DNA of 15,124 nt from a virus: the UHGV virus genome UHGV-0073333, one strand, 5' to 3'. Under the pieces are notes generated by a model. The model did not search any database. It worked only from the letters and a program-made list of their open reading frames with translations, and was not told the origin of the DNA. Position 1 is the stretch's first letter. The number at the start of each line of letters is the position of its first letter. A program made the position numbers and the translations under genes. Shown here piece after piece: positions 2,066 to 15,124 of this stretch.

Positions 2066-2429
2066 AAATGCAGAAATGGCGCTTAGCTCCGCAATCGGAG
2101 AGCAGGTGGCAAAGATTGCTGGTGCTGTGTGGATTCATAACCTTCATTCTACTGGTGAAGAGAAAATGGCAATTCAGACGCCAGAGGGACGCACCATTAC
2201 TACATCTCTGAAGCCGTCAGATGTTTGTGATCTGATTTGCGCATTCATGTACCCAGCAATGAGGACTGCCCACGGCGATAAGTGGAAACTTGCGACAACC
2301 GCTGAATTTGATATGTGGCTAAACAATGATGGCATGCTGACTGATTACGGAATAACCAAGTGGCAGATGCTGGTTAGCCATATCGCAAACGCTATAGACC
2401 ACGTGGGGTACGGTGATGCGAAACATTGA
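2058..2429 (+). CDS. Hypothetical protein (123 aa)
   Basis: ATG 2058 with GGGAGG at 2047-2052; overlaps upstream stop 2063-2065; ORF track. Confidence 0.6.
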   Translation: MRENAEMALSSAIGEQVAKIAGAVWIHNLHSTGEEKMAIQTPEGRTITTSLKPSDVCDLICAFMYPAMRTAHGDKWKLATTAEFDMWLNNDGMLTDYGITKWQMLVSHIANAIDHVGYGDAKH

Positions 2430-5172
2430 TCTTATCCGTCAGGTTATCAGTGCGTCTGAAAACAACTGGCCTCATGTGCTGGGCTGCCTGAACATAAATG
2501 TCCCTGACTCTCCGCGCCGTCATGCTCCCTGCCCTGCATGTGGGGGCAAAGATCGATTCCGGTTCGATGACAACGGGCGCGGTAGCTTCATCTGTAATCA
2601 GTGCGGCGCTGGTGATGGGCTGGATTTAATTAAACGCGTAAATAACTGCGACACAACAGAGGCGGCGCTTCTTGCCGCTGATGTTCTGGGTATTGATTAC
2701 CGGACAACGGAAACACCAGAAGCCACCAGCCAGAAACGGGAACAACTGGAAACCGAGCGCCAGCGACGCGAACAGGAGCGCCTGAAAAGGGCAGAGAAGG
2801 ACGAACAACAAAGACGGGATACGTTTTCCCGTCAGTTTGATGACATGCGCAGAAAGGCTGTAAACGGCAAATCTGATTATCTGGTTGCGAAAGGGGTAGG
2901 TGATTTTACATTCCCCGTGTTGCCCGATGGATCTCTGTTGCTGGCGCTGGTGGATAAATCCGGCGCAGTAACAGCAGCACAGACTATTACCTCACATGGT
3001 GAAAAAAGACTCCTGACAGGTTCAGCAAAGCGGGGGGCATATCACGCCATAAACGCACCAGAAACAACACAGAGCATCTTAATCGCAGAAGGGCTGGCAA
3101 CGGCATTATCTGCCCATTTAATTCGTCCAGAGGCGCTGACAGTGGCGGCGATTGATGCCGGGAACCTGTTATATGTCGCCCAGGTACTGCGGGATAAATT
3201 TCCTTCAGCACAAATCATCATTGCTGCGGATAACGACCACAGCGAAGGAAGACAAAACACGGGGAGAATAGCAGCAGAAAAAGCAGCTTTATCTGTTTCT
3301 GGATGGGTGGCATTACCCCCGACAGATCACAAAGCAGACTGGAATGATTACCACCAAAAACACGGCATTAAATGCGCCACAGAAGCGTTCAATAAGTCAA
3401 TGTACCAACCACAGGGTAATGGCGTGAAACAGGAGCCACAGACCATTGAGGGAAGCGATTTTAAGGTTATGGATACCGACCCACTGAAACCAAGAATAGA
3501 AAGCCGCGAGGATGGTATTTATTGGGTATCTCCGAGAGCTGACAGCCAGAGTGGAGAAATCATCAATAACGAAAGCTGGTTATGTTCTCCGTTAAGCGTT
3601 ATCGGTACTGGCAGAGACGATAAAGACCAGTATCTCATTCTTCGCTGGCTGTCGTTTGGTTCTGAAACGCCGACAACCGCTGCCATTCCACTGGCTGATA
3701 TTGGTGAACGTGAAGGATGGCGCACACTTAAAGCTGGTGGGGTAAATGTCACGACCAAAAGCAGCCTCAGAGCAATACTGGCAGACTGGCTACAACGCAG
3801 TGGCTCTCGTGAATTGTGGCGTGTTGCTCATGCCACTGGCTGGCAATGCGGAGCGTACATCATGCCTGATGGGGAAATCATCGGAACACCTGAAAATCCT
3901 GTGCTGTTCAGCGGGAGAAGCTCAGCCGCAGCCGGATATACCGTCTTAGGGAGCGCGAAAAGCTGGCGTGATAACGTGGCGCGTCTGGCCTTTGGTAACT
4001 ATTCAATGATGACCGGGATCGGCGCAGCACTGGCAGCGCCATTGATTGGGCTGGTGGGCGCTGACGGGTTCGGCATTCATTTCTATGAGCAGTCGAGCGC
4101 AGGGAAGACCACCACGGCAAACGTGGCGAGCAGCTTATACGGCAACCCTGATTTACTGCGGCTGACGTGGTACGGAACCGCGCTGGGGCTGGCAAATGAG
4201 GCCGCCGCCCACAATGACGGACTAATGCCGCTTGATGAAGTTGGTCAGGGCGCTGATCCTGTCAGCGTTTCACAGTCTGCCTATGCGTTATTTAACGGTG
4301 TAGGGAAACTGCAAGGCGCTAAAGATGGTGGAAACCGGGATCTAAAACGTTGGCGTACAGTGGCAATCAGCACCGGAGAAATGGATTTAGAAACATTTAT
4401 CGCTACTTCCGGGCGAAAAACCAAAGCCGGGCAACTGGTGCGACTGCTGAATATTCCGTTGAGTAAAGCAGTACGCTTTCACGATTACCAGAACGGAAAA
4501 CAGCACGCAGACGCACTGAAAGACGCTTACCAGCATCACCACGGCGCGTCCGGGCGTGAGTGGATTAAATGGCTGGCAGACCACCAGCAACAGGCTATTA
4601 AAACCGTTCGTGATTGCGAAAGCAGATGGAGAAGCCTGATCCCATCCGATTATGGTGAGCAGGTTCACCGTGTAGCCGCGCGATTTGCCATTCTGGAGGC
4701 CGCATTGTTGTTAGGCGAGGTTGTAACAGGCTGGGATGCTCAGACATGCCGTGATGCGATACAGCACAGCTATAACGCATGGTTGCGCGAGTTCGGCACA
4801 GGTAACAAAGAGCATCAGCAGATTATTGAACAAACGGAGGCATTTCTTAATGCCTATGGGCTTAGCCGTTTTGCACCATTTCCATACAGCCCGGCAGATT
4901 TGCCCATCAAAGATTTAGCCGGATACCGTCAGCGTGGAGAACATGACGAAAGCCCAATGATTTTCTACACATTCCCGGCCACATTTGAAAAGGAGATCGC
5001 ATGTGGTTTCAACGCAAAACAGTTTGCTGAAGTGTTGAAAAAAGCCGGGATGCTAACCCCACCAAACAGCGGTCGTGGATACCAAAGAAAATCACCACGT
5101 ATTCAGGGACGACAAATAAACGTTTATGTACTCAATTACCAGCCAGGAGATTATAACTCATCTGAAGAATGA
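2416..5172 (+). CDS. Bifunctional primase-helicase replication initiator, P4 alpha-like (zinc ribbon + TOPRIM + P-loop NTPase)
   Basis: 918-aa ORF; CxxC...CxxC zinc ribbon (CPACGG...CNQCG); TOPRIM signatures (IAEG glutamate, AADND DxD); Walker A-like SSAGKTT; start ATG 2416 (GTG 2413 also possible) overlapping the upstream stop. Confidence 0.88.
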   Translation: MRNIDLIRQVISASENNWPHVLGCLNINVPDSPRRHAPCPACGGKDRFRFDDNGRGSFICNQCGAGDGLDLIKRVNNCDTTEAALLAADVLGIDYRTTETPEATSQKREQLETERQRREQERLKRAEKDEQQRRDTFSRQFDDMRRKAVNGKSDYLVAKGVGDFTFPVLPDGSLLLALVDKSGAVTAAQTITSHGEKRLLTGSAKRGAYHAINAPETTQSILIAEGLATALSAHLIRPEALTVAAIDAGNLLYVAQVLRDKFPSAQIIIAADNDHSEGRQNTGRIAAEKAALSVSGWVALPPTDHKADWNDYHQKHGIKCATEAFNKSMYQPQGNGVKQEPQTIEGSDFKVMDTDPLKPRIESREDGIYWVSPRADSQSGEIINNESWLCSPLSVIGTGRDDKDQYLILRWLSFGSETPTTAAIPLADIGEREGWRTLKAGGVNVTTKSSLRAILADWLQRSGSRELWRVAHATGWQCGAYIMPDGEIIGTPENPVLFSGRSSAAAGYTVLGSAKSWRDNVARLAFGNYSMMTGIGAALAAPLIGLVGADGFGIHFYEQSSAGKTTTANVASSLYGNPDLLRLTWYGTALGLANEAAAHNDGLMPLDEVGQGADPVSVSQSAYALFNGVGKLQGAKDGGNRDLKRWRTVAISTGEMDLETFIATSGRKTKAGQLVRLLNIPLSKAVRFHDYQNGKQHADALKDAYQHHHGASGREWIKWLADHQQQAIKTVRDCESRWRSLIPSDYGEQVHRVAARFAILEAALLLGEVVTGWDAQTCRDAIQHSYNAWLREFGTGNKEHQQIIEQTEAFLNAYGLSRFAPFPYSPADLPIKDLAGYRQRGEHDESPMIFYTFPATFEKEIACGFNAKQFAEVLKKAGMLTPPNSGRGYQRKSPRIQGRQINVYVLNYQPGDYNSSEE

Positions 5173-5194
5173 GCTTCTTCATGTGCGTAGAAAA

Positions 5195-5310
5195 GGTGTT
5201 GGTTCAGTTGGTTCAGTTGGTTCAATTTGTAAAGAGTATTGTTTTATAAGGATTTTATTCTTTTTATTGAACCAACACTGAACCAACAACACGGTATTTT
5301 GAACCAACAC
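5195..5310. repeat. Iteron cluster A: 3 tandem GTTGGTTCA 9-mers, AT-rich spacer, 3 inverted TGAACCAAC 9-mers; ori/crr-like
   Basis: Tandem 9-mers at 5198-5224; inverted copies at 5268-5276, 5279-5287, 5300-5308; 5195-5236 is a perfect 42-bp inverted copy of 13753-13794. Confidence 0.75.
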
Positions 5311-5358
5311 AATGTGACTGAATTGATGCGCACAACACCTGGCTGGCATCAGAGAGTG

Positions 5359-5434
5359 TTTTACGAGACTTTCGTAAAATCCTGTGTACAAGGGCGTGAC
5401 GTTTTTGAAAGTGAGCACTACGAAATTTTCGTAG
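5359..5434. promoter_or_regulatory. Two palindromic protein-binding-site candidates sharing a TTTCGTA half-site
   Basis: TTTTACGA-N5-TCGTAAAA at 5359-5379 and perfect 17-bp palindrome CTACGAAATTTTCGTAG at 5418-5434; same core recurs at 14253-14288. Confidence 0.35.
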
Positions 5435-5628
5435 TTCAAAAAACAGCCTCTGAGAAGTTGTTATGCCTGTTCAGCAAACCATCCGCATAGCTGATCGCGA
5501 ATCAAATTACCAATGGAGCCAGAAGCAAGGGCAGAACTGAAAAGCGCCTGCCGTGAAGAGTAATGCGACACCATAAATATAGTTTTTAGAGTCCATAAAA
5601 AACCTGTCAAAACCTGACACACAGAACG

Positions 5629-5662
5629 ATGCCACCAGCTACTGAGCGGTGGCATTTTTTTG
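5629..5662 (+). terminator. Rho-independent terminator closing the primase operon
   Basis: 8-bp stem ATGCCACC (5629-5636) / GGTGGCAT (5648-5655) followed by a T-run at 5656-5661. Confidence 0.7.
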
Positions 5663-5756
5663 TGCTATTTGTTTCATATTTTGCAATTACGATGATGAAT
5701 ATTGCGATTTGTGAAACTATAATAACTGTTGTTTTATACAGTTCTAAGGGGGCGTT

Positions 5757-5918
5757 ATGGCTATTTCAGTAAAGCAGGTATTGATAAGTGAGAAGCAAAT
5801 GGAAGCGATAAAGAAAATTCAGGAAGAGCAGCGTAAAAAATCAGGAATTGGAGTAGCGCCAACTCTGCATGAAATTGCACGAGGGTTAATAGATAAGGCG
5901 CTGGCAGGCTGTATGTGA
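5757..5918 (+). CDS. Small protein (53 aa), first gene of the plus-strand cargo operon; possibly a ribbon-helix-helix-like DNA-binding protein
   Basis: ATG 5757 preceded by AAGGGGG at 5746-5752; not in the ORF track (below cutoff), translated by hand: MAISVKQVLISEKQMEAIKKIQEEQRKKSGIGVAPTLHEIARGLIDKALAGCM. Confidence 0.5.
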   Translation: MAISVKQVLISEKQMEAIKKIQEEQRKKSGIGVAPTLHEIARGLIDKALAGCM

Positions 5919-5934
5919 AAATGGATGGCATCGC

Positions 5935-6396
5935 ATGGAACTAAAATTTATTGATAACCCTGTGCGATTACAGGCCTTTCTTAACGAGCCAGGCAATACC
6001 GAAAATATTGTTGAGCCGGGGCACACGTACTACATCAAGCCTGATGCGGTATATCTCGGCATCTACGAAGGATTAGTGCTGGCTGGCGTTCATGAAGTGC
6101 GTAACTTCTGGCATAGCGTTGTTGAATGCCATGCGGTGTACGACCCCGGATTCCGTGGTGAATATGCACTGCAAGGGCATCGATTATTCTGCAAATGGCT
6201 TCTCGAAAACTCACCATTCCTTAACAGCATTACCATGGTTCCTGACACCACCAAATACGGACGGGCAATTATCCGTTTGCTTGGCGCTACCCGTGTTGGT
6301 CACCTTGATGATGCTTATATCAGATGTGGTAAACCCGTCGGCGTAACGCTTTATCAGTTAACTCGGCAACAATATAAGGAATTCAGCGAATGTTAA
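5935..6396 (+). CDS. Hypothetical protein (153 aa); occupies the gp14 position of a P22-type ejection cassette
   Basis: ORF track; starts 16 nt after the upstream stop; its stop overlaps the next start (ATGTTAA). Confidence 0.7.
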   Translation: MELKFIDNPVRLQAFLNEPGNTENIVEPGHTYYIKPDAVYLGIYEGLVLAGVHEVRNFWHSVVECHAVYDPGFRGEYALQGHRLFCKWLLENSPFLNSITMVPDTTKYGRAIIRLLGATRVGHLDDAYIRCGKPVGVTLYQLTRQQYKEFSEC

Positions 6397-7043
6397 TTAC
6401 CCACATAGCTCATAAACATCTCAATCGTGCCGTATACGAAAAAGGCGGTGATGGTGGTGCCTCTAAAGCTCAGGCGAAGGCCCAGCAGCAGGCAATTGAT
6501 TTGCAGCGCGAGCAGTGGAATACGGTGATGAATAATCTCAAGCCGTATGCAGAAGTCGGATTGCCTGCTTTACAACAACTACAAGGACTGATGACTCTGG
6601 AAGGGCAGAATAAAGCCGCGAATGATTTCTTTGGTTCTGGTTTATATAAAACACAGGCAGATCAGGCCCGTTATCAGAACCTTGTCTCAGCAGAAGCTAC
6701 CGGGGGGCTTGGCTCAACAGCTACCAGTAACCAGTTATCTTCCATTGCGCCCATGCTTTATAACAATTGGCTTAGTGGGCAAATGCAAAATTATGGAAAC
6801 CTGCTAAATGTCGGGATGAATGCGGCATCAGGGCAGGCAACAGCAGGGCAACTCTTGCAGGGGCTTGGCGCTATTCGTGCAGGTCAGGCGCAGCAGCCAT
6901 CCAGTCTTGCGCGTGGTATTGGTGGGGCGGCATCAGGCGCTTTAGCGGGTGCGCAACTTGGTTCCGTTGTTCCGGGTATAGGTAATGTCGCCGGGGCTAT
7001 TGGTGGTGGGCTTATTGGTCTTGTTGGGGGGCTTGGATTCTAA
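6390..7043 (+). CDS. Gly/Gln-rich protein (217 aa) with a glycine-zipper hydrophobic C-terminus; ejection-protein-like (gp7-like by position and size)
   Basis: ORF track; C-terminal GGLIGLVGGLGF; TAATG overlap with the next gene. Confidence 0.7.
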   Translation: MLITHIAHKHLNRAVYEKGGDGGASKAQAKAQQQAIDLQREQWNTVMNNLKPYAEVGLPALQQLQGLMTLEGQNKAANDFFGSGLYKTQADQARYQNLVSAEATGGLGSTATSNQLSSIAPMLYNNWLSGQMQNYGNLLNVGMNAASGQATAGQLLQGLGAIRAGQAQQPSSLARGIGGAASGALAGAQLGSVVPGIGNVAGAIGGGLIGLVGGLGF

Positions 7044-8464
7044 TGGCGACATGGCAACTTGGCGGGCTGCCTAGCATGGCACCGCAAAATGATAATGCTC
7101 CTCGTTCTTCCGTTCCTCAGCCTGTGCAGTATCAGCAGCAGCCAAACGTAGGTTTAATGGCGCTACAGGGGCTAAGAGGCGTTGCTGAGATTAATCAGCA
7201 GGCACGTCAACAACAGCGTAAAGCAGAGTTTCAGAAAGCATATGCCGGGGCTTTTGAGTCTGGAGACAGAAACAAAATGCGCAGTCTTATTTCTGAGTAT
7301 CCAGAAGAATTTGAAAGCGTTCAGAAAGGGATGGGCTTTATTGATGACGACCAGAGAAATTCTATTGGTCATCTTGCGACTAGTGCTCAAATCGCATCTT
7401 CGCTCGGAACTGGGGCATTTGGAAAATTCATAGCAGATAACGAAGATGAAATGCGTCGCTTGGGAATTTCTCCTGAGTCTGTTGCCGAAATGCATGTTAA
7501 TGATCCACAGGGATTCCAGCGGCTTGCTGGTAGTATGGCACTGTTTTCTCTCGGTCATGAGAAGTATTTCGATATCAAAGATCAAATGGAAGGTCGGGAT
7601 ATTGAGCGTGGCAAGTTGGCAGAAACAATCCGCAGCAATCAGGCTGGCGAAGCACTTCAGGCGAGAGGGCAGGATATTAGCCGAGCAAATGCGTTAACGT
7701 CAGCATATGCACCAACAGCAGCAATGCAGAATTACAATCAGTACGCTCAAATGTTAAAGGCGGATCCAGAGGGGGCGGCGGCATTTGCGGCAGCGGCTGG
7801 AATTAATACAAACGCCAAAAAATTAATGAGTGTTAGAGAAAACGATGATGGCACTGTCACAAAATACTACACAGACGGAAGTGAAGAGCAGGGAAAACTA
7901 AACCAGCCAATATCTGGAGATGGGTTTCGTCCAATAGCTTTGCCAACAGCCCAAAAGATCATGGAAAAGTCGCCAGAAGGGGCTAAAAAAGCTGCTGGAT
8001 TTGCATACAGGGTTAGGGATGCTCTTGATTCAATAGATACACTGAAAGACCAGCTTAGCCCACAGCGAGTGGCGATCATTAATAATGCTTTGGGTAATGG
8101 GACGCTGGCTAACTTAACGCTCAGCCCAATAGAGCAGCAATACGTTGTTAATGCTAATGACGCAATAATGGCAATACTCCGTCAGGAAACAGGGGCATCT
8201 ATCCTACCAGCTGAAATGTCCAAATATTATCAAATGTATTTCCCTCAGCCTGGTGATTCCACAAAAACCATTGATACCAAGCGCCGGAAGATGGAAAACC
8301 AGTTCAATTCGCTGAAAGCTGCTTCTGGTCGAGCTTATGATGCTTTGCGGGTTATTTCAGCAGTTGACAGAGGAACTTCTTCTTCGTCGCAGACATTGCC
8401 GCAATCTGAGCAGGTATCACAGCCAGCAGCCAGCAGTAATTTTTCTTCACTATGGGGTGATTAA
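7043..8464 (+). CDS. Low-complexity Gln/Ala-rich protein (473 aa); ejection/internal virion protein-like (gp20-like by position and size)
   Basis: ORF track; translationally coupled on both sides; no enzymatic motifs seen. Confidence 0.78.
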   Translation: MATWQLGGLPSMAPQNDNAPRSSVPQPVQYQQQPNVGLMALQGLRGVAEINQQARQQQRKAEFQKAYAGAFESGDRNKMRSLISEYPEEFESVQKGMGFIDDDQRNSIGHLATSAQIASSLGTGAFGKFIADNEDEMRRLGISPESVAEMHVNDPQGFQRLAGSMALFSLGHEKYFDIKDQMEGRDIERGKLAETIRSNQAGEALQARGQDISRANALTSAYAPTAAMQNYNQYAQMLKADPEGAAAFAAAAGINTNAKKLMSVRENDDGTVTKYYTDGSEEQGKLNQPISGDGFRPIALPTAQKIMEKSPEGAKKAAGFAYRVRDALDSIDTLKDQLSPQRVAIINNALGNGTLANLTLSPIEQQYVVNANDAIMAILRQETGASILPAEMSKYYQMYFPQPGDSTKTIDTKRRKMENQFNSLKAASGRAYDALRVISAVDRGTSSSSQTLPQSEQVSQPAASSNFSSLWGD

Positions 8465-10143
8465 TGGCTAAAGCATGGAAAGATGTTATCGCTTCTCCAC
8501 AGTATCAGGCGTTAGCACCAGAACAAAAAGCGCAGGCTCAAGAGCAATACTTCAATGAAGTCGTGGCCCCGCAAGCCGGAGAAAGTGTAGAGCAGGCTAA
8601 GCAGGCTTTTTATGCTGCCTATCCACTACCATCAACGAATGAAATAGACCGATCCCAATCAGCAACTCAAAATATTCAACATACATCATCTGATAATTCT
8701 CTTGCGTCAGGGTATGCAAAGTTAGCTACTCAGCAAAGAGAGGGGCTTGAGCGTTCAGCAGAACAGGGAGCCAGTCTTGGGGCTGCGATGCGCGATGCTA
8801 TAACAGGCGAAAGCCGAATGACTCCAGAGATGGAGAGACTGCAAAATGTCGCCTCTGCCCCAGAATTGAACTCACTAAGCATGGATGCCCTAAAGGCTGG
8901 ATGGTCTCAACTTTTCGGCTCTGACGCGTCTCAGGAAAAGATTCTTCAGGGAATGGGGGCGACATTAAGGCAGGATGAGAAGGGGAATACTATCGTTTCT
9001 CTGCCATCAGGTGATTATGCCCTGAACAAGCCGGGTTTATCACCGCAAGACCTGACTTCGTTTCTTGCTAATGCGTTGGCGTTTACACCAGCGGGCAGGG
9101 CTGGAACGGTGCTTGGTGCCATAGGAAAATCAGCAGCTACAGATTTAGCACTACAGGGAGCCACCAGCCTTGCTGGTGGAGAAGATATTGATCCGTTACA
9201 AACGGTAATTTCTGCTGGCATTGGTGGTATTGGTAAGGGGCTGGAAAATACAGCGAGTGCGGTTTCGAGGGCTGTTCGTGGTGATATGTCGCCTGAAGCA
9301 AAGGCTGCTGTCGACTTTGCATCGGAAAGAAATCTGCCGTTAATGACCAGTGACATGCTGAAAGATAAAACCTTTATGCAGAGTCAGGCTCAGACATTAG
9401 GCGAAAGAGTTCCTTTTTTTGGAACCGGTAAGAATCGGCTGAATCAACAACAAGCACGAGAAAATTTAGTCAGAACATTTAGCGATGGTCTGGGTGGCAT
9501 TTCTGATAAACAGCTTTATGAATCTGCGACTAAAGGGCAACAAAAATTCATTGAGGCAGCAGGAAAGCGATATAACCGCATAATTGACGCTATGGGGGAT
9601 ACCCCTGTCGATCTCTCAAACACGGTAAAAGCTATCGACAATCAGATTGCCGTGTTAAGCCGCCCGGGCAAATCTCAGGATAGAGCCGCGGTAAAAGTCT
9701 TGCAGCAATTTAAAGACGATATCACCAGCGGACCAAATGACCTGCGTCTGGCGAGGGAAAACAGAACCGATCTTCGAAAGCGATTTATGGCGTCATCTGA
9801 CACTGTTGATAAAGATACGCTCCAGAAAGCCAGCGATATTATCTACAAGGCATATACGGCGGATATGAAAAAAGCCGTAGCCAAAAATCTTGGAGCAGAC
9901 GAAGCCATTAATATGGCAAGGGTTGATCGCTCATGGTCTAAATTCAATGACATGATGGGAAGAACGCGCGTTCAAAAGGCAATAGCCAGCGGCAAGGCCA
10001 CGCCTGAGGATGTAACAAAACTCGTTTTTAGCCAAAGCCCATCAGAACGTTCTCAGCTTTACAGGCTTCTGGGTGACAATGGTAGGGAAAAAGCACCAGC
10101 AGCCATAGCTGCTGCGTTAGGCAAAACGCACGAGCGGCCATAG
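8464..10143 (+). CDS. Low-complexity Ala/Gln-rich protein (559 aa); ejection/internal virion protein-like (gp16-like by position)
   Basis: ORF track; ATG 8464 overlaps upstream stop (TAATG), GGGGTG Shine-Dalgarno-like sequence at 8451-8456. Confidence 0.78.
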   Translation: MAKAWKDVIASPQYQALAPEQKAQAQEQYFNEVVAPQAGESVEQAKQAFYAAYPLPSTNEIDRSQSATQNIQHTSSDNSLASGYAKLATQQREGLERSAEQGASLGAAMRDAITGESRMTPEMERLQNVASAPELNSLSMDALKAGWSQLFGSDASQEKILQGMGATLRQDEKGNTIVSLPSGDYALNKPGLSPQDLTSFLANALAFTPAGRAGTVLGAIGKSAATDLALQGATSLAGGEDIDPLQTVISAGIGGIGKGLENTASAVSRAVRGDMSPEAKAAVDFASERNLPLMTSDMLKDKTFMQSQAQTLGERVPFFGTGKNRLNQQQARENLVRTFSDGLGGISDKQLYESATKGQQKFIEAAGKRYNRIIDAMGDTPVDLSNTVKAIDNQIAVLSRPGKSQDRAAVKVLQQFKDDITSGPNDLRLARENRTDLRKRFMASSDTVDKDTLQKASDIIYKAYTADMKKAVAKNLGADEAINMARVDRSWSKFNDMMGRTRVQKAIASGKATPEDVTKLVFSQSPSERSQLYRLLGDNGREKAPAAIAAALGKTHERP

Positions 10144-10604
10144 TTCAGAATGCTGTAGATAAGGCGACTGATCCGTCTGGAAATATCAGTGTTGAGAAGT
10201 TTATTAATGCGTTACACCGGAACAGGAAGCAATCAGCAACTTTCTTTAAAGGCGTACATGGAAAGGAACTGGACGGCGTTATTAAATACCTCAACGATAC
10301 AAGACACGCGGCAAAAGCGAACGTTCAAAACTTAAATGGTCAGCAGCTTTATGGATTGTTAGTTGGTGGTGGCATCATAAACGCAGCAGTATTAGCGGGG
10401 ATGCTAAAAACGGCTGCGTTTGTTGTTCCTGCTGCTGGTGCCGTAGGCGGAGCAGCGAAGGCATACGAAAGCCCTGTTATACGAAATGCCTTGTTACGTC
10501 TGGCAAATACGCCAAAAGGTAGCACAGCATATGACAGAGCGATCAGTACGGTCACACAATCGCTCACCAGAGTCGCACAGGCATCACAAAAAGAAGCTCA
10601 ATAA
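10086..10604 (+). other. Open frame of 172 codons with no canonical start, overlapping the 3' end of the 559-aa gene; probable frameshifted C-terminal extension or frameshift-disrupted gene
   Basis: Stop-free from 10086 to TAA 10602-10604; first ATG/GTG/TTG only at 10356; operon terminator sits after 10604, not after 10143; encodes a Gly/Ala-rich hydrophobic segment. Confidence 0.45.
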
Positions 10605-10606
10605 CT

Positions 10607-10631
10607 GGTTAGCCACGGATGGCTAATTTTT
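10607..10631 (+). terminator. Rho-independent terminator of the plus-strand cargo operon
   Basis: Stem TTAGCCA (10609-10615) / TGGCTAA (10620-10626), loop CGGA, then TTTTT at 10627-10631. Confidence 0.55.
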
Positions 10632-11042
10632 GTTCTTTGCTCTCATCCACAGGTAAAGAAGGGCAAGAACAAGACAAAAAACAGAGAATAGATAACCTAC
10701 CTCATATGATGCGCCAAAAAAATTAGCTATTGATACGGGCAAAAAAGCTGAAGCGATCAAAATTGAAAGGCAAAAAATAAGACCAGTAATATAGTTTATT
10801 AAATTCTTAAATGAGAAACGTTTTGCTTGATTTATGGTCTTAGCGAACGATCGCTTAACGACGGATAAAAGCAAATAGATGGCGACAGTTGCTAATGCCC
10901 CTTTCCACCAGTCTGGATATAGTTTTGCGACAATCAGACCAAGGAAAACCATGATGACAGCCTGAGCATTCACACCAACCCTCCCTTTAGCGTTGTTTAG
11001 ATTGGCAATCATCATATATCCAAGACATGGCATTTGGTACAT
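10623..11042 (-). CDS. Small inner-membrane protein (about 139 aa, about 4 hydrophobic helices); start uncertain
   Basis: ORF track 10623..11210 begins at a TTG; first ATG is at 11042; strongly hydrophobic; AT-rich; no clear Shine-Dalgarno sequence. Confidence 0.5.
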   Translation of the reverse strand: MYQMPCLGYMMIANLNNAKGRVGVNAQAVIMVFLGLIVAKLYPDWWKGALATVAIYLLLSVVKRSFAKTINQAKRFSFKNLINYITGLIFCLSILIASAFLPVSIANFFGASYEVGYLFSVFCLVLALLYLWMRAKNKN

Positions 11043-11165
11043 AGCTTGGGTCGGGATTTCAAATCCGCCCCCGTTGATGGGGTCGTTACAGTACGCGCAT
11101 ATCCGCTTTATGTGAAACAGGAAGATTTTTCTGATATCACTGCCACAGCAAAACACCAATTTCGA

Positions 11166-11181
11166 GACAAGTACGCGCGCG
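11166..11181. repeat. 16-bp direct repeat GACAAGTACGCGCGCG, copy 1
   Basis: Exact copy at 11452-11467; partial third copy ACAGTACGCGCA at 11088-11099. Confidence 0.6.
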
Positions 11182-11451
11182 AGGGGTATCAGTTGCAAAA
11201 AATTTTGCAACTACGTCCGACCAATACACACACGATGGCGGGGGATACCATAAAACTGTTCTCTACATGAGACAGAGTGGTGGTGATGTGTTGATTATCG
11301 GCCTATATGCGCACAGGACGCGCTATGACAATGTTTTATGCGGGTACACCAATCACATGTATCTGGTGTGATAAATCGCGTTACATGACCTTTCATGTTG
11401 TGCTGGTGGTTATCACGACGTTCTGAATCTGGCTTTTGTCTGATATTTTGC

Positions 11452-11467
11452 GACAAGTACGCGCGCG
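11452..11467. repeat. 16-bp direct repeat GACAAGTACGCGCGCG, copy 2
   Basis: Exact match to 11166-11181, 286 bp apart, in a non-coding region. Confidence 0.6.
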
Positions 11468-11804
11468 TAACATCGAAATTATCGGATGGCGTATGTTGCT
11501 GGCAAGATAAAGTCGGCGTAATACAAAGGCGTTACTTGATAGCAGCAAGATTACAACAATGGTTGTTGAATTTGAGCGATGTAAGGAATTGATTTAGGGA
11601 GGCGCTGATGGCTAAAAAGTTCCACTACCAGCGGATGAATGCGCCAGCGATGGCCGTTTGGTAGTAAAAGAGGAGCCATTCCTCAATCAGTTGAATACAT
11701 TATGCCAACTAAATGGGTGGGGGCACTGTGTGGGTATTCAGCGGTGACGGTATTTTTTAAGCCAAGGACTATCCGTAGCAGGGGGACTCATTTTGAAATA
11801 TTTA

Positions 11805-12242
11805 TCATATGTAACTTATTATTTTAGATAAAGATTTCCAGTTAAAGAAAAAAGTTATCATTGATATAATCAAATATGCCCCTGCGAGTAGCAGGGCATA
11901 ATAATCCAGAGGCAGATTGCTGACAACAGGGGCAAACATCGAGATCATTGCTAATAGGCAGGCTGTGATCAGCGTAGTTCCTGTATCAAAAAGCCCCTCA
12001 ATAATGCCTTTTAGTACTCCGTTACTTTTTAGAGCGCCTACAATTCCCTTTGAACTATCAAAGCTACTTAGCATGGTGACTGATGCCAAAACAAAACCAA
12101 AGAGAACTCCAGAAATAGTTGAAAGAGCACCAGCAGCCGAAATGACAGCATTGTGATCTAGGTCGTGTAAAAAATGGGCACCAGCAATAGCCATAGCTAG
12201 AGCAAACAATGACTTGGCAGCAAACAATTTCCGAGAACTCAT
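11805..12242 (-). CDS. Small membrane protein (145 aa, 3-4 hydrophobic helices); second gene of the two-gene cargo operon
   Basis: ORF track; ATG with AGGA 7 nt upstream, 12 nt after the stop of the 361-aa gene; AT-rich. Confidence 0.75.
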   Translation of the reverse strand: MSSRKLFAAKSLFALAMAIAGAHFLHDLDHNAVISAAGALSTISGVLFGFVLASVTMLSSFDSSKGIVGALKSNGVLKGIIEGLFDTGTTLITACLLAMISMFAPVVSNLPLDYYALLLAGAYLIISMITFFFNWKSLSKIISYI

Positions 12243-12254
12243 AATGTATTCCTG

Positions 12255-13340
12255 TTACGTTTGACTAACCAAATAGTACTGGGTTAGATACCTAAGGTTG
12301 TCATTCTTTGCTTGTAGCATAGCATTTTTAACGTCAGTATCGGTCGGATACCCATCTGCTTGGATAGGCACCATCTTCTTTACCGTAAGAACTTCGTCTA
12401 CAAGACTTTTCTTCTTTTTATCGCCCTGAGCAACAACATTTGCTTTCTCAAAAGTTAAACGACCATCACCACCAGGGAACTTTTCTAGCATCTCCTTAAG
12501 GCTTTTTTTAACGTCATCCTCAAGCCATCCCTTTGCTTTTCTTTTTAATGGAGAATGTCCGCGTAACGAAATAGTCAGGTGGCTTGAACTGGTGCCTCTG
12601 ATCATCTCAATCATCTGATTCGCGAACATTCCATCGAGTTGATACTGTGCGGCATTGAAGTTTCTTGGGATGGCCACAGAAATCTCGCAGCTTCTTAGAT
12701 TGGATCCAGTTTCGAGTAGTTCTTTGATGCTTTCTTCTTTCCAAATGGCTTCAAAAGAAACAGGGACTCCGCGATCACTGGAGTTGAAAAGAAGGAAGGC
12801 TAAGTCACTATGGCGTGGACCTAAATGATTTAAAGACAATACTAGAATGTCTGTCTGAGGATAATAAATAAAGTATGTACGTTCTGAAAGAGTCTTTGCC
12901 CCGGCTAGAGGGATTTTCTCTTCCACCCACTCTTTATCTGTAATATATGCCAGTGTTGCGCTTTTTCTTCTTCGAGACATGAATCCGAAGTAGGAGCCAT
13001 CCTCGGGTGAGATGTCTAGAAAATGAATTTTAAGTTCTCTTTCACCAAAGTCTGCATAGTGGGTCATCTTGAAGTCTTTAGAACACCGATCATACAGATT
13101 TTTAAAGGCCTCTGCGGTTAACCCCTTGTTACTAGTGCGAATATTCTCAGAGCTTGTGTAAAAGCCCACCCTTACAGATTTCAAACTTTGATCTTTTGGT
13201 GCCACAGTCATTTGAGCTCCATTGTACTCTGCGATAGTTTTTGCACACCTTGAAATCAAAATCTCCATGTCAGTCACGAGAAAATAACTATGGATGAAAC
13301 CCATCAAAGGCATTGAATACAGGTGGCTTTTGAGAATCAT
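12255..13340 (-). CDS. Hypothetical soluble protein (361 aa), no recognisable catalytic motif; first gene of the two-gene cargo operon
   Basis: ORF track; about 40% GC by eye and AGA/AGG arginine codons suggest horizontal acquisition. Confidence 0.8.
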   Translation of the reverse strand: MILKSHLYSMPLMGFIHSYFLVTDMEILISRCAKTIAEYNGAQMTVAPKDQSLKSVRVGFYTSSENIRTSNKGLTAEAFKNLYDRCSKDFKMTHYADFGERELKIHFLDISPEDGSYFGFMSRRRKSATLAYITDKEWVEEKIPLAGAKTLSERTYFIYYPQTDILVLSLNHLGPRHSDLAFLLFNSSDRGVPVSFEAIWKEESIKELLETGSNLRSCEISVAIPRNFNAAQYQLDGMFANQMIEMIRGTSSSHLTISLRGHSPLKRKAKGWLEDDVKKSLKEMLEKFPGGDGRLTFEKANVVAQGDKKKKSLVDEVLTVKKMVPIQADGYPTDTDVKNAMLQAKNDNLRYLTQYYLVSQT

Positions 13341-13689
13341 CCTAACCTGGTGACGGTGGTTCGCATATCCTGATGGATGATCAGTGATTAATCAATGCGC
13401 CAAGCAGATGTGTCTATGTGTTTGTTAATCATTGCATGACAGTAGATCGACATGGGAGATCACGTTATATAGTTGAATTGTTAGGATATCCATGCACCGA
13501 TCAACTGACTAGGCTGATGTGCTTTTTAGCAGGTGCCATATAGTAGTTAGGCGGTTCTGTGAAATGATTACTGTTCCAGCATAACTGCGGCATAAAGCGG
13601 TGCTATATAAGCTATTTGCTGGCGGATTTAGTCTTCACCGTTCATATATGTAGTGACTATTTGACAGAGTGTTAGTTCACGGACACTTT

Positions 13690-13795
13690 TTGTTGGTTCA
13701 AAATGAGTTGATGTTGGTTCAATATTTTAGAAAAAACACAATAAAAACAACGCTCTTTACAAATTGAACCAACTGAACCAACTGAACCAACACCT
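13690..13795. repeat. Iteron cluster B (inverted copy of cluster A); ori/crr-like
   Basis: GTTGGTTCA at 13692-13700 and 13713-13721; three tandem TGAACCAAC at 13765-13791; 13753-13794 is the exact reverse complement of 5195-5236. Confidence 0.75.
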
Positions 13796-13827
13796 TTTTG
13801 CTTATCTATATAATCTGAGAGGCAGAA

Positions 13828-14115
13828 ATGATAAGGGACAGGAAAGCTGAAGAGCTGGAGTCAAAAGGGCTATACCGGAGAGCTGCCGCACGATGGGCAG
13901 AAGTCATGATGCTGGCAAATGGCGATAAAGAACGTGAACATGCAGCAAACAGGCGCTCTGAATGTATCCGTAAGGCGGCACGCCCACCAGCAACTACAGA
14001 CAGATTCGGAGATTTAAGACAGGCAGTTAAGCGAACTCATTCGGCTCTTGGTATGGATGAGGAAGCGAGAGGGTACTTCAGGCGTTATCGCGATAAAGAT
14101 TGCCAGAGACAGTAA
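13828..14115 (+). CDS. Small basic protein (95 aa), PerC-like transcriptional regulator (family assignment tentative)
   Basis: ATG 13828 with GAGAGG at 13817-13822; TATAAT at 13809-13814; N-terminal pattern AEELESKGLYRRAAARW recalls the PerC/Pch family. Confidence 0.6.
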   Translation: MIRDRKAEELESKGLYRRAAARWAEVMMLANGDKEREHAANRRSECIRKAARPPATTDRFGDLRQAVKRTHSALGMDEEARGYFRRYRDKDCQRQ

Positions 14116-14170
14116 TGCTCTCTCTGTTTTGGCAAATTACCCTTCACTTTGAAGGGAGCGGAGCTATAAA

Positions 14171-14413
14171 AATGGTTTTAGGTACATTCCTCAAATTGAG
14201 GTTTCCGAAAATATCAGCGGGTTAGCGATTAATCTGGCGAGTAATTAAACTGCGAAAATTTCGTAGGGGGTTACGAAAATTTCGTAGGTCTACTCATGGT
14301 TTAGGCTTACTTTCCCGACATCCCCCAATGGGGGGGTCGAAATAATCAATGGGTTAGGCTTACCTCCCCCCATTTCCTGCATTGCAGGTTTTCGAAAGAA
14401 TCAATGGGTTAGG
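14171..14413. repeat. Four direct copies of ATGG(G)TT(T)AGG in the integrase-upstream region; candidate arm-type or operator sites
   Basis: Copies at 14171-14185, 14295-14310, 14344-14358, 14399-14413; the last two are an identical 15-mer AATCAATGGGTTAGG 55 bp apart. Confidence 0.5.
14253..14288. promoter_or_regulatory. Tandem palindromic operator-like sites CGAAAATTTCGTAGG x2, 21-bp period
   Basis: Exact 15-mers at 14253-14267 and 14274-14288; same core as the palindrome at 5418-5434. Confidence 0.4.
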
Positions 14414-14814
14414 TCATCGTGCAAATTTGCACTCTGCCAGCCAACGCAATTTCTCGTTGGCGGAAATATCAGGTATTTACTGAACGAACGGTCTACCCGC
14501 CTGTTCAACTACCAGTTGTACATGGCTGCTTTATGTGCAAATGGTGGTGAGAGAAAATTGTTTGGGGGTACTTTTGGGGGTATCTCCAAAGATGTAATGG
14601 GGAAATGTCTTTATATATCAATGTATTTTTATTGTTTGTTTTGTTCCTATTATCGCACCATTCTAACGTCTCCCCAAGTCTACTCAAGTATTTAAAAACC
14701 TCTTATAATCAGTATATTAATGCCCCTTTTAGTCTTTTGACGTCTATTTAAGTACCCCAAACTCTACAAGCAATTGAGGGGATTTGCTGTTCAGTTTAGT
14801 GGAGATACCCCCAA

Positions 14815-15124
14815 GTGAAACTCAATGCCCGTCAAATAGACACTGCCAAGCCAAAAGAGAAGGCTTACAAGTTGGCTGATGGTGGTGGTCTGTACCTCCT
14901 GGTAAAACCTGGTGGAGGAGAATATTGGCGTCTCAAGTATCGTGTAGCTGGTAAAGAGAAGCTGTTAGCACTAGGTGTGTATCCTGAGGTCACCTTAGCT
15001 GATGCTCCTGCAAAACTTGAAGAAGCTAAAAGAGGTATCTCTGGGGGAATCGATCTGATGGAAGTGAAGCGAGAGGAAAAGATTGCCCGGGAAACGCAGT
15101 TAAACAACACCTTCAAAGATATTG
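14815..15124 (+). CDS. int: Tyrosine integrase, P4-type (DUF4102 arm-binding N-terminal domain); 5' partial, continues past window end
   Basis: GTG 14815 with GGAG at 14801-14804; N-terminal KPKEKAYKLADGGGLYLLVKPGGGEYWRLKYRVAGKEKLLALGVYPEV matches the conserved P4-family integrase signature. Confidence 0.85.
   Translation, partial: MKLNARQIDTAKPKEKAYKLADGGGLYLLVKPGGGEYWRLKYRVAGKEKLLALGVYPEVTLADAPAKLEEAKRGISGGIDLMEVKREEKIARETQLNNTFKDI

Follow-up and report, generated by a model that had tools for sequence, protein, structure and literature searches.

Two mirror-image iteron modules around the late zone of a thrW-integrated chromosomal island: a probable split replication origin

Locus and anatomy of the iteron clusters

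The viral sequence UHGV-0073333, a stretch of 15,124 nt analysed at its full length (hereafter the window, to which all coordinates refer), contains two inverted clusters of 9-bp iterons, A and B, which bracket 8.4 kb of phage-derived and accessory genes. The analyses reported here indicate that A and B are probably mirror-image modules which together form the replication origin of a Gram-negative satellite of the phage-inducible chromosomal island (PICI) type, integrated at thrW and with its origin split by cargo. In Escherichia coli (e.g. strain ABU 83972), the island represented in the window adjoins the tRNA-Thr gene (thrW) and proA, and spans about 19 kb up to its attR site. Its annotated gene order comprises an integrase, a helix-turn-helix (HTH) regulator, AntA/B, DUF4222, ash, icd-like genes and small open reading frames (ORFs), followed by a TOPRIM+DUF927 protein, cluster A, the late zone genes, cluster B and PerC. 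Searches of the window with Pfam and PHROGs found no capsid, portal or terminase genes. Judged by this gene content, with an att site of its own, int, regulator and pri genes and an incomplete virion set, the window element is a Gram-negative PICI-type island residing at thrW.

The gene preceding cluster A (2416..5172, plus strand) encodes a 918-aa fused primase-helicase, here termed Pri-Rep (RefSeq WP_001244105.1, annotated as a TOPRIM+DUF927 protein), in which Pfam detects a zinc ribbon (Zn_Ribbon_Prim, 2.8e-15), a Toprim domain (Toprim_3, 6.2e-15) and a DUF927 helicase domain (7.5e-47), followed by a C-terminal tail predicted to bind DNA. Residues 8-362 share 33% identity with the alpha protein of phage P4, and BLASTP comparison of the C-terminal regions of both proteins returned no similarity (E 1.2). 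In a phmmer search against PDB, residues 403-814 matched a structure deposited as 'Pathogenicity island protein' (8tch_A, E 2.5e-11) and, more weakly, 5dgk (0.012). By these matches, the Pri-Rep helicase is related to the Rep proteins of Staphylococcus aureus pathogenicity islands (SaPIs), and not to P4 alpha.

Cluster A starts 26 bp past the Pri-Rep stop codon, in agreement with a previous sequence-only reading of the window, which had placed it directly downstream of the primase-helicase gene. Module A (5191..5316, plus strand) contains six exact copies of GTTGGTTCA: three in tandem on the plus strand (5198, 5207 and 5216, occupying 5198-5224 with a 9-bp period) and, beyond a spacer with 84% A+T (5225-5267), three on the minus strand, which read as inverted TGAACCAAC at 5268, 5279 and 5300. 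Module B (13664..13798, minus strand) presents, when read on the plus strand, direct iterons at 13671 (with one mismatch), 13692 and 13713, a spacer (13722-13764, 79% A+T) that holds CTTTACAAAT, and a tandem triple of TGAACCAAC (13765-13791). The latter corresponds to minus-strand GTTGGTTCA copies at 13765, 13774 and 13783, all of them exact, bringing B to five exact copies and one with a single mismatch.

Both clusters follow the same plan, with three tandem GTTGGTTCA units, a 43-bp AT-rich spacer (A+T of 83.7% in A and 79.1% in B; 53.4% over the window as a whole) and three spaced units in inverted orientation. The intervals between spaced iterons differ, measuring 11 and 21 bp in A and 21 and 21 bp in B, and the modules are therefore mirror images rather than plain copies. 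The two 3-copy, 9-bp arrays were recovered independently by Tandem Repeats Finder, and a count of GTTGGTTCA allowing at most one mismatch yielded 17 matches in the window versus 3.6 expected, a number reached in 0 of 200 shuffles. Direct sequence check confirmed that the reverse complement of 13753-13794 equals 5195-5236 exactly, defining a 42-bp core. The inverted arms identified by a repeat finder reach 55 nt at 96% identity (5191-5245 and 13744-13798), with the remainder of A and B diverged to 70-79% outside them, and global alignment of A with the reverse complement of B gave identity in 105 of 138 columns. The exact match and this alignment bear out the earlier proposal that the clusters are inverted copies with 42-bp identity, and the iteron counts and spacer composition agree with the internal plan of tandem 9-mers, AT-rich spacer and inverted 9-mers put forward for each of them. 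The extent assigned to B at that time (13690-13795) needs correction at its lower limit, since the third, degenerate iteron takes B down to 13671.

A consensus sigma-70 scan detected no promoter at A or B. A candidate outward promoter overlapping the tandem triple of B was dropped on this negative result, despite the presence of a conserved TTATATATA-like motif after B. Rfam searches of the whole window returned no match, and hence no P4 CI/C4-type RNA.

SaPI Rep proteins are helicases that load themselves and read short iterons through a C-terminal winged-helix domain; these iterons are located directly downstream of rep, in two halves that flank an AT-rich centre (PMC9371898). The same origin layout has been reported for E. 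coli PICIs (PMC6092414), and published SaPI/PICI origins contain 6-12 iterons (PMC6092414, PMC9371898). As in these Rep-ori systems (Ubeda et al.; Fillol-Salom et al. 2018, PMC6092414; Qiao et al. 2022, PMC9371898), the putative origin of the window element lies directly 3' of pri-rep, A and B each present three plus three opposed iterons around an AT-rich spacer, and the associated protein fuses a primase to a predicted self-loading helicase related to SaPI Rep. Specificity also appears to reside in the C-terminal domain, with the signal detected here confined to residues 871-900 (see below). The island context is likewise that of PICIs, encompassing int, an AlpA-like HTH, a Bro/Ash zone, a replication zone, a late zone and PerC. 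By the features tested, the element would thus work like, and belong to, the SaPI/PICI Rep-ori kind. Since each cluster alone amounts to a complete SaPI/PICI-type origin module, the pair is best described as a putative duplicated, mirror-image PICI origin, and not as an origin accompanied by a distinct enhancer.

Conservation of the modules and covariation with Pri-Rep

Using Pri-Rep as the query, 77 loci were fetched from one-genome-per-species contigs and 80 from IMG/VR, together with several E. coli regions, and about 140 related loci, drawn from many genera of Enterobacterales, made up the comparison set. In nearly all relatives with a full-length gene, an iteron array starts 22-60 bp past the primase stop codon. 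About 60 loci present a compact layout, in which a second, inverted tandem triple is located 170-664 bp after the stop and the origin reads as tandem triple, AT spacer, spaced inverted units, short linker, spaced units, spacer and inverted tandem triple; the linker measures ~20-100 bp in about two thirds of the relatives for which both modules were found. A split layout was observed in 31 loci, including the window, with modules 1.2-10.7 kb apart and always in mirror-image orientation, tandem triples outward and spaced iterons inward. Split loci include representatives of Lonsdalea, Rosenbergiella, Chimaeribacter, Pantoea, Serratia, Leclercia, Cedecea, Citrobacter and Erwinia. Across relatives, module separation ranges from about 60 bp to 10.7 kb. 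The possession of two mirror-oriented modules, which in these 31 loci are separated by genes, sets the window family apart from the SaPI/PICI systems cited above.

The traits that characterize B recur across genera, and encompass the 21/21 spacing, the presence of CTTTACAAAT beside the triple and the TTATATATA-like motif after it. Both the spacing and CTTTACAAAT are kept in Lonsdalea, Rosenbergiella, Chimaeribacter, Pantoea, Serratia, Leclercia, Cedecea and Erwinia loci, and the difference between A and B in spaced-iteron intervals is also maintained in other genera. This recurrence argues that the A/B pair is an old design that has been conserved, rather than a duplication that arose recently in one strain. 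The flanks just inside A and B show no conservation outside E. coli, and hence provide no clue to the origin of the split. Insertion of cargo into the linker of a compact origin was considered as a possible history and set aside as too simple, because compact relatives have their late zone downstream of B. The position of PerC varies too, following A in some of the split loci but coming after B in the window. The varying positions of the late zone and PerC thus indicate that modules and genes have been reshuffled more than once.

The comparative analysis outlined at least ten iteron classes, including GTTGGTTCA, GTTGTCTCA, GTCGGTTCA, ACGGGTTAT, GTGGGTTAT, GTCGGGTAA, GGTCGGTT, TGGGATAAGT, GGTGGTTC, CGTGGTTC and CGGGTTCA. 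In every class A and B share one iteron, and this holds for the split Citrobacter locus L066 (TGGGATAAGT, 7.8 kb apart) and for L045. Each iteron class has its own C-terminal motif in Pri-Rep, with the last ~30 residues varying with class. In the aligned set, the motif GRG[YF]QRKSPR[IV] is present in 17/17 proteins of the GTTGGTTCA class, which elsewhere are 60-81% identical to the window protein, and GRGYQGRVRE in 6/6 proteins of the GTTGTCTCA class, which are 74-81% identical elsewhere. One GTCGGTTCA protein carries QRKTPRI, and the few GTTGGTTC-class proteins of the larger viral-contig set carry QKKSPRI, QQKSPR[IV] or QKKGPRI. Residues 871-900 form the sole 30-residue segment in which proteins of one class are clearly more identical to each other than to those of other classes (+12.5 points; next highest +3.4, most negative). 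In the window, the patch that varies with iteron class reads QRKSPRI (residues 891-897), is encoded at 5083..5103 (plus strand) and maps to a predicted beta-hairpin 'wing'.

Taken together, these observations on the covariation of tail, A iterons and B iterons provide strong, if indirect, evidence that Pri-Rep would read both A and B. The proposal that the clusters are binding sites of the adjacent primase-helicase is supported by this three-way covariation, which extends over at least ten iteron classes. Since B keeps its architecture and class-specific iterons at a distance, it appears to be under selection as a Pri-Rep site. The covariation also predicts the residues that set origin specificity, and the pairing of QRKSPRI with GTTGGTTCA versus QGRVRE with GTTGTCTCA may explain compatibility or cross-talk of co-resident satellites.

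An initial AlphaFold model of residues 700-919 assigned pLDDT values of 35-55 to the C-terminal tail; the fold search was run on the shorter model described next. Modelling of the last 110 residues of Pri-Rep (AlphaFold, 94 sequences) yielded a strand-helix-helix-hairpin arrangement, with pLDDT 75-87 for residues 40-100 and a mean of 68, and with the covarying patch in the hairpin. The best match among solved structures was the winged-helix, oriT-binding protein TcpK, with a Foldseek probability of 0.97-0.99 but an E-value of 0.1-0.3 and a TM-score of 0.44-0.48. The model is hence only suggestive of a winged-helix-like fold for the Pri-Rep tail.

Several additional elements were observed around the modules. 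A T-rich stretch followed by TTATATATA lies directly after the tandem triple of B (13792-13815) in all iteron classes, with equivalent positions identified in loci L016, L024, L038, L063, L064 and L066. Many compact origins carry, in place of the AT-rich spacer of B, a conserved GC-rich element, AAACCCAG-N4-5-TGGCGCGG-CTG, that is common to several iteron classes (L005, at 14232-14267, and L007, L008, L009, L025, L036, L043 and L049). In E. coli O111:NM (L004, 13690-14140), an orphan B-type module and PerC occur without a primase gene in another chromosomal context, and about 175 other E. coli genomes show only a partial cluster match; read together, these appear to be remnants of related satellites. 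The Yersinia pekkanenii locus (L037) presents three origin-like iteron clusters (4289-4557, 8871-9139 and 13917-14215) and a primase match that exceeds the usual length by ~1.1 kb; its contig is also the source of a database protein named HNH endonuclease domain protein. An insertion in the primase gene or tandem elements may account for this arrangement.

Mechanism and alternative roles of the second module

If A and B are two modules of one origin, Pri-Rep, combining a P4-alpha-like primase with a SaPI-Rep-like self-loading helicase, would recognise the 9-bp iterons via its winged-helix-like C-terminal tail, and would then melt the 43-bp AT-rich spacer between the convergent iteron sets and load there. 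After excision and circularisation, Pri-Rep at A and B might fire both modules or join them by looping, with B staying functional at a distance. Replication would be independent of the carried genes, and the interval would therefore constitute a slot tolerant of gene turnover. Cooperation between A and B by looping is speculative, and is suggested by analogy with the systems discussed below. A more demanding version of this model, to which we give only tentative credit, is an obligate two-site origin, wherein Pri-Rep assemblies on A and B would pair across up to ~10 kb and initiate independently of distance, turning the interval into a protected slot into which captured virion and defence genes could be plugged. 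Were this the case, the interval might be amplified differently from the core arc, and the element would be the first case of a PICI origin that relies on long-range cooperation in cis, a solution arrived at independently of P4 ori/crr and with another helicase.

The parallel with P4 had been drawn in the sequence-only reading, which proposed A and B as equivalents of its ori and crr. The P4 GenBank record agrees with the facts invoked there: TGTTCAC(C) type-1 repeats are annotated both in crr, which immediately follows alpha, and in ori, at a distance of 4.7 kb. The equivalence holds as logic: both elements have two cis sites with one short iteron, with one site following the primase-helicase gene directly and its partner kilobases off, and the crr unit also comprises two tandem iterons at a 9-bp period, a spacer and inverted iterons. 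It does not hold as membership of the P4 family, because the window helicase resembles SaPI Rep and not alpha. The primase domains are homologous, but similarity is confined to the primase part, and the helicase here is of the DUF927 type. Furthermore, crr is a pair of 120-bp direct repeats with ori laid out differently, whereas A and B repeat a single module in mirror orientation, and many relatives of the window element have adjacent modules, an arrangement not known for P4.

The P4 alpha protein acts between ori and crr by looping, and the pi protein of R6K does so between the gamma origin and the distant alpha and beta origins. In R6K, as in P1 incA and F incC, distant iteron arrays under one initiator communicate by looping or handcuffing. 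These plasmids differ from the window element in having unrelated RepA/pi-type initiators without helicase activity, and direct-repeat arrays instead of AT-centred mirror modules.

Iteron plasmids with a second, controlling array are well established, with incA of P1 and incC of F lying beside their origins, and they furnish the main alternative explanation for B. As a negative copy-number control array, B would titrate Pri-Rep and 'handcuff' A. Such a role also predicts that B should carry cognate iterons covarying with the protein, and the relatives in which B was not detected would fit a module that is dispensable for initiation. Yet B keeps the full anatomy of an origin, with convergent iteron sets and a 43-bp spacer of ~80% A+T, and A- and B-type spacers are conserved across genera. 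In addition, PICIs have been described without a plasmid state or copy-control genes (PMC6092414). A copy-control function is hence considered unlikely, and second origin, enhancer and copy-number control site stand as putative alternative roles for B.

A second alternative views the inverted repeats as recombination substrates that flip or exchange the cargo, in which case the interval would be either an invertible segment or a cassette with A and B as its terminal inverted repeats. The exact 42-bp repeat and its 55-bp extension could serve this purpose, and cargo does differ among strains while A and B stay fixed, which makes homologous exchange between different elements at A and B plausible. 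The junction expected from inversion within the 42-bp core was built and searched, with a coverage threshold of at least 80%, in 5,426 complete E. coli genomes. It was recovered in 0 of the 526 genomes with any match, against 361 in which the native junction was covered, although rare subpopulations could escape detection in consensus assemblies. Window-homologous cargo is co-oriented with the primase in 11/11 primase-bearing loci having it, and Pfam and PHROGs identified no recombinase or transposase domain in the cargo ORFs; an IS66 element in the interval of L083 is a secondary insertion. Moreover, the ~60 compact loci keep both modules adjacent without any cargo between them, and covariation of the iterons with the helicase tail would be unexpected of a recombination site. 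The suggestion that the repeats drive inversion of the cargo is thus largely refuted, and we regard the recombination explanation as a whole as very improbable. Deletion of the cargo, which had been proposed as well, fares no better, since simple homologous recombination between inverted repeats yields no deletion, and cargo-less relatives keep both modules side by side instead of one fused cluster.

It is similarly hard to credit that B is a functionless fossil, the origin left behind by another satellite that arrived in the opposite orientation through insertion or recombination, for although tandem islands are known at thrW and remnants with a B-type cluster and PerC but no primase exist (L004 and the ~175 E. 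coli genomes with partial cluster matches), the tandem triple of B is adjoined by PerC and not by a primase remnant, homology between the flanks of A and B stops 4-7 nt outside the tandem triples, the 21/21 spacing, CTTTACAAAT and the TTATATATA-like motif are conserved across genera and iteron classes, and a fossil would not follow iteron class switches. Transposon, fossil-origin and invertible-segment explanations were rejected on the evidence above.

The interpretation of A and B as two modules of one origin is favoured over these alternatives, but several points weigh against it. In 11 genome loci with ~10 kb of downstream sequence no B was identified, suggesting that B may lie farther off or be dispensable. 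The winged-helix assignment is weak, given the Foldseek E-values of 0.1-0.3 and the mean pLDDT of 68. The window copy is partly decayed, with a truncated gp16-like gene, an upstream ORF with an internal stop and a second island abutting attR, and it may therefore no longer replicate. Binding, melting and initiation at A or B are all deduced from sequence, looping is proposed by analogy only, and the same anatomy would fit a negative copy-control role for B.

The natural series of module distances in this family, from ~60 bp to 10.7 kb, makes the distance-dependence of origin function directly testable, and a plasmid-maintenance assay of pri-rep-ori autonomous replication has been used for EcCICFT073 (PMC6092414). 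In the literature searched, we found no description of a second, distant PICI origin module or of a mirror-image double module, nor of an accessory zone placed between origin halves. Literature searches for the iteron strings returned only chance primer matches, and both the thrW element and the GTTGGTTCA iteron are absent from the ISME 2018 supplements.

The late zone and neighbouring features

PICIs and P4-like satellites move virulence and anti-phage genes among enterobacteria, and the sites at which these genes reside, and how such sites tolerate gene turnover, are an active question. Tommasini et al. 2023 (PMC10111431) divide Gram-negative PICIs into four zones (integration, Bro, replication and late), with the late zone composed of captured helper late genes, and He et al. 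2024 (PMC11364771) report an accessory region downstream of pri. The A-B interval is this known late/accessory zone, populated by P22-type ejection genes in the window and, in relatives, also by the defence-type genes AbiD, SoFic or PD-Lambda-2_C/beta. In the sections of both papers that were covered, the zone is placed after the replication module without report of an enclosing second origin module. The accessory/late zone and the one-module PICI origin are hence already known, and the location of the zone between two origin halves looks new, giving the region downstream of pri a defined far boundary.

In the window, the zone extends over 5317..13663. A 53-aa ORF (WP_001018526; 5757-5918, plus strand) without Pfam or PHROG match is followed by P22 gp14-like (5935-6396; DUF2824, 1.5e-61), gp7-like (6390-7043; P22_gp7, 1.4e-63), gp20-like (7043-8464) and truncated gp16-like (8464-10143) genes; the cargo also matches Inj_translocase in Pfam (4.5e-58) and transglycosylase and DNA transfer protein families in PHROGs. 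Three genes of unknown function are encoded on the minus strand (10623-11210, 11805-12242 and 12255-13340). Homologs of the 53-aa ORF occur in most relatives, usually just upstream of a large delivery-protein gene (the tblastn query, 5724-5885, was slightly shifted and the matches are approximate).

The interval, already read as cargo from the window alone, is a slot of variable gene content. Module A is carried by ~390 E. coli genomes. Among E. coli thrW elements, neither A and B nor the B-PerC junction changes, but the interval between the modules ranges over 7.5-10.7 kb and differs in its genes. Content varies most at 11.5-13.66 kb, beside B, where the segment present in the window is found in only a few relatives. 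This most variable slot is occupied in the window by an adjacent minus-strand pair (11805-13340; phrog_8552 and phrog_7651) without Pfam or PADLOC match, which constitutes a candidate for accessory or defence genes. The interval of L083 contains, besides its IS66 insertion, a full-length gp16-like transglycosylase, and that of L084 encodes AbiD. In other genera, the interval (or the region after B in compact elements) harbours tape-measure proteins, SLT transglycosylases, a P2 gpV-type spike with baseplate hub, SoFic, a PD-Lambda-2_C/P4 beta homolog and the single-stranded DNA-binding protein SSB.

Post-origin genes recurrently encode DNA-delivery or envelope-penetration proteins of differing virion types, with P22 ejection proteins in E. 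coli, and capsid genes were not seen. These stretches map to 5935-10143 in the window, 14632-18042 in L024, 14448-16250 in L023, 13918-16125 in L038, 17927-20548 in L017 and 9984-12983 in L009. Late-gene capture itself has been published, and a bias of the captured genes towards injection machinery may be worth a look. In seven split loci an ORF of ~147 aa, absent from the window, abuts the inner side of B on the minus strand (L023, 19449-19892; L024, 21101-21499; L029, 21291-21734; L063, 19152-19613; L064, 12816-13250; L083, 23551-24006; L084, 20603-21043), with no Pfam match and a marginal PHROG match.

Beyond B, a PerC-family regulator gene (13828..14115, plus strand; Pfam PerC, 3e-33) lies between B and attR, and three E. 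coli cargo variants show no difference across the junction from B to PerC. The statement in the sequence-only reading that A and B enclose all cargo does not extend to PerC, which is part of the element and yet falls outside the bracket. The attR core, TCCTATTATCGCACCA (14647..14665, plus strand), was identified by comparison with the tRNA-Thr/attL region of L002 and is a copy of the tRNA-Thr 3' end. Window positions 14647-15124 comprise this core and, directly after it, the left end of a second island, with an integrase truncated to its Arm-binding domain. In ABU 83972, MarR and the vat autotransporter toxin gene come next in this second island, forming a tandem array at thrW.

The near-palindrome CTACGAAA(A/T)TTTCGTAG occurs in three copies, one just inside A (5418-5435) and two between PerC and attR (14253-14267 and 14274-14288). 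Near the latter, a 22-bp direct repeat, TCGAAA(T/G)AATCAATGGGTTAGG, is present at 14337 and 14392. The palindrome copies and the 22-bp repeats may be regulator sites or integrase arm-type sites.

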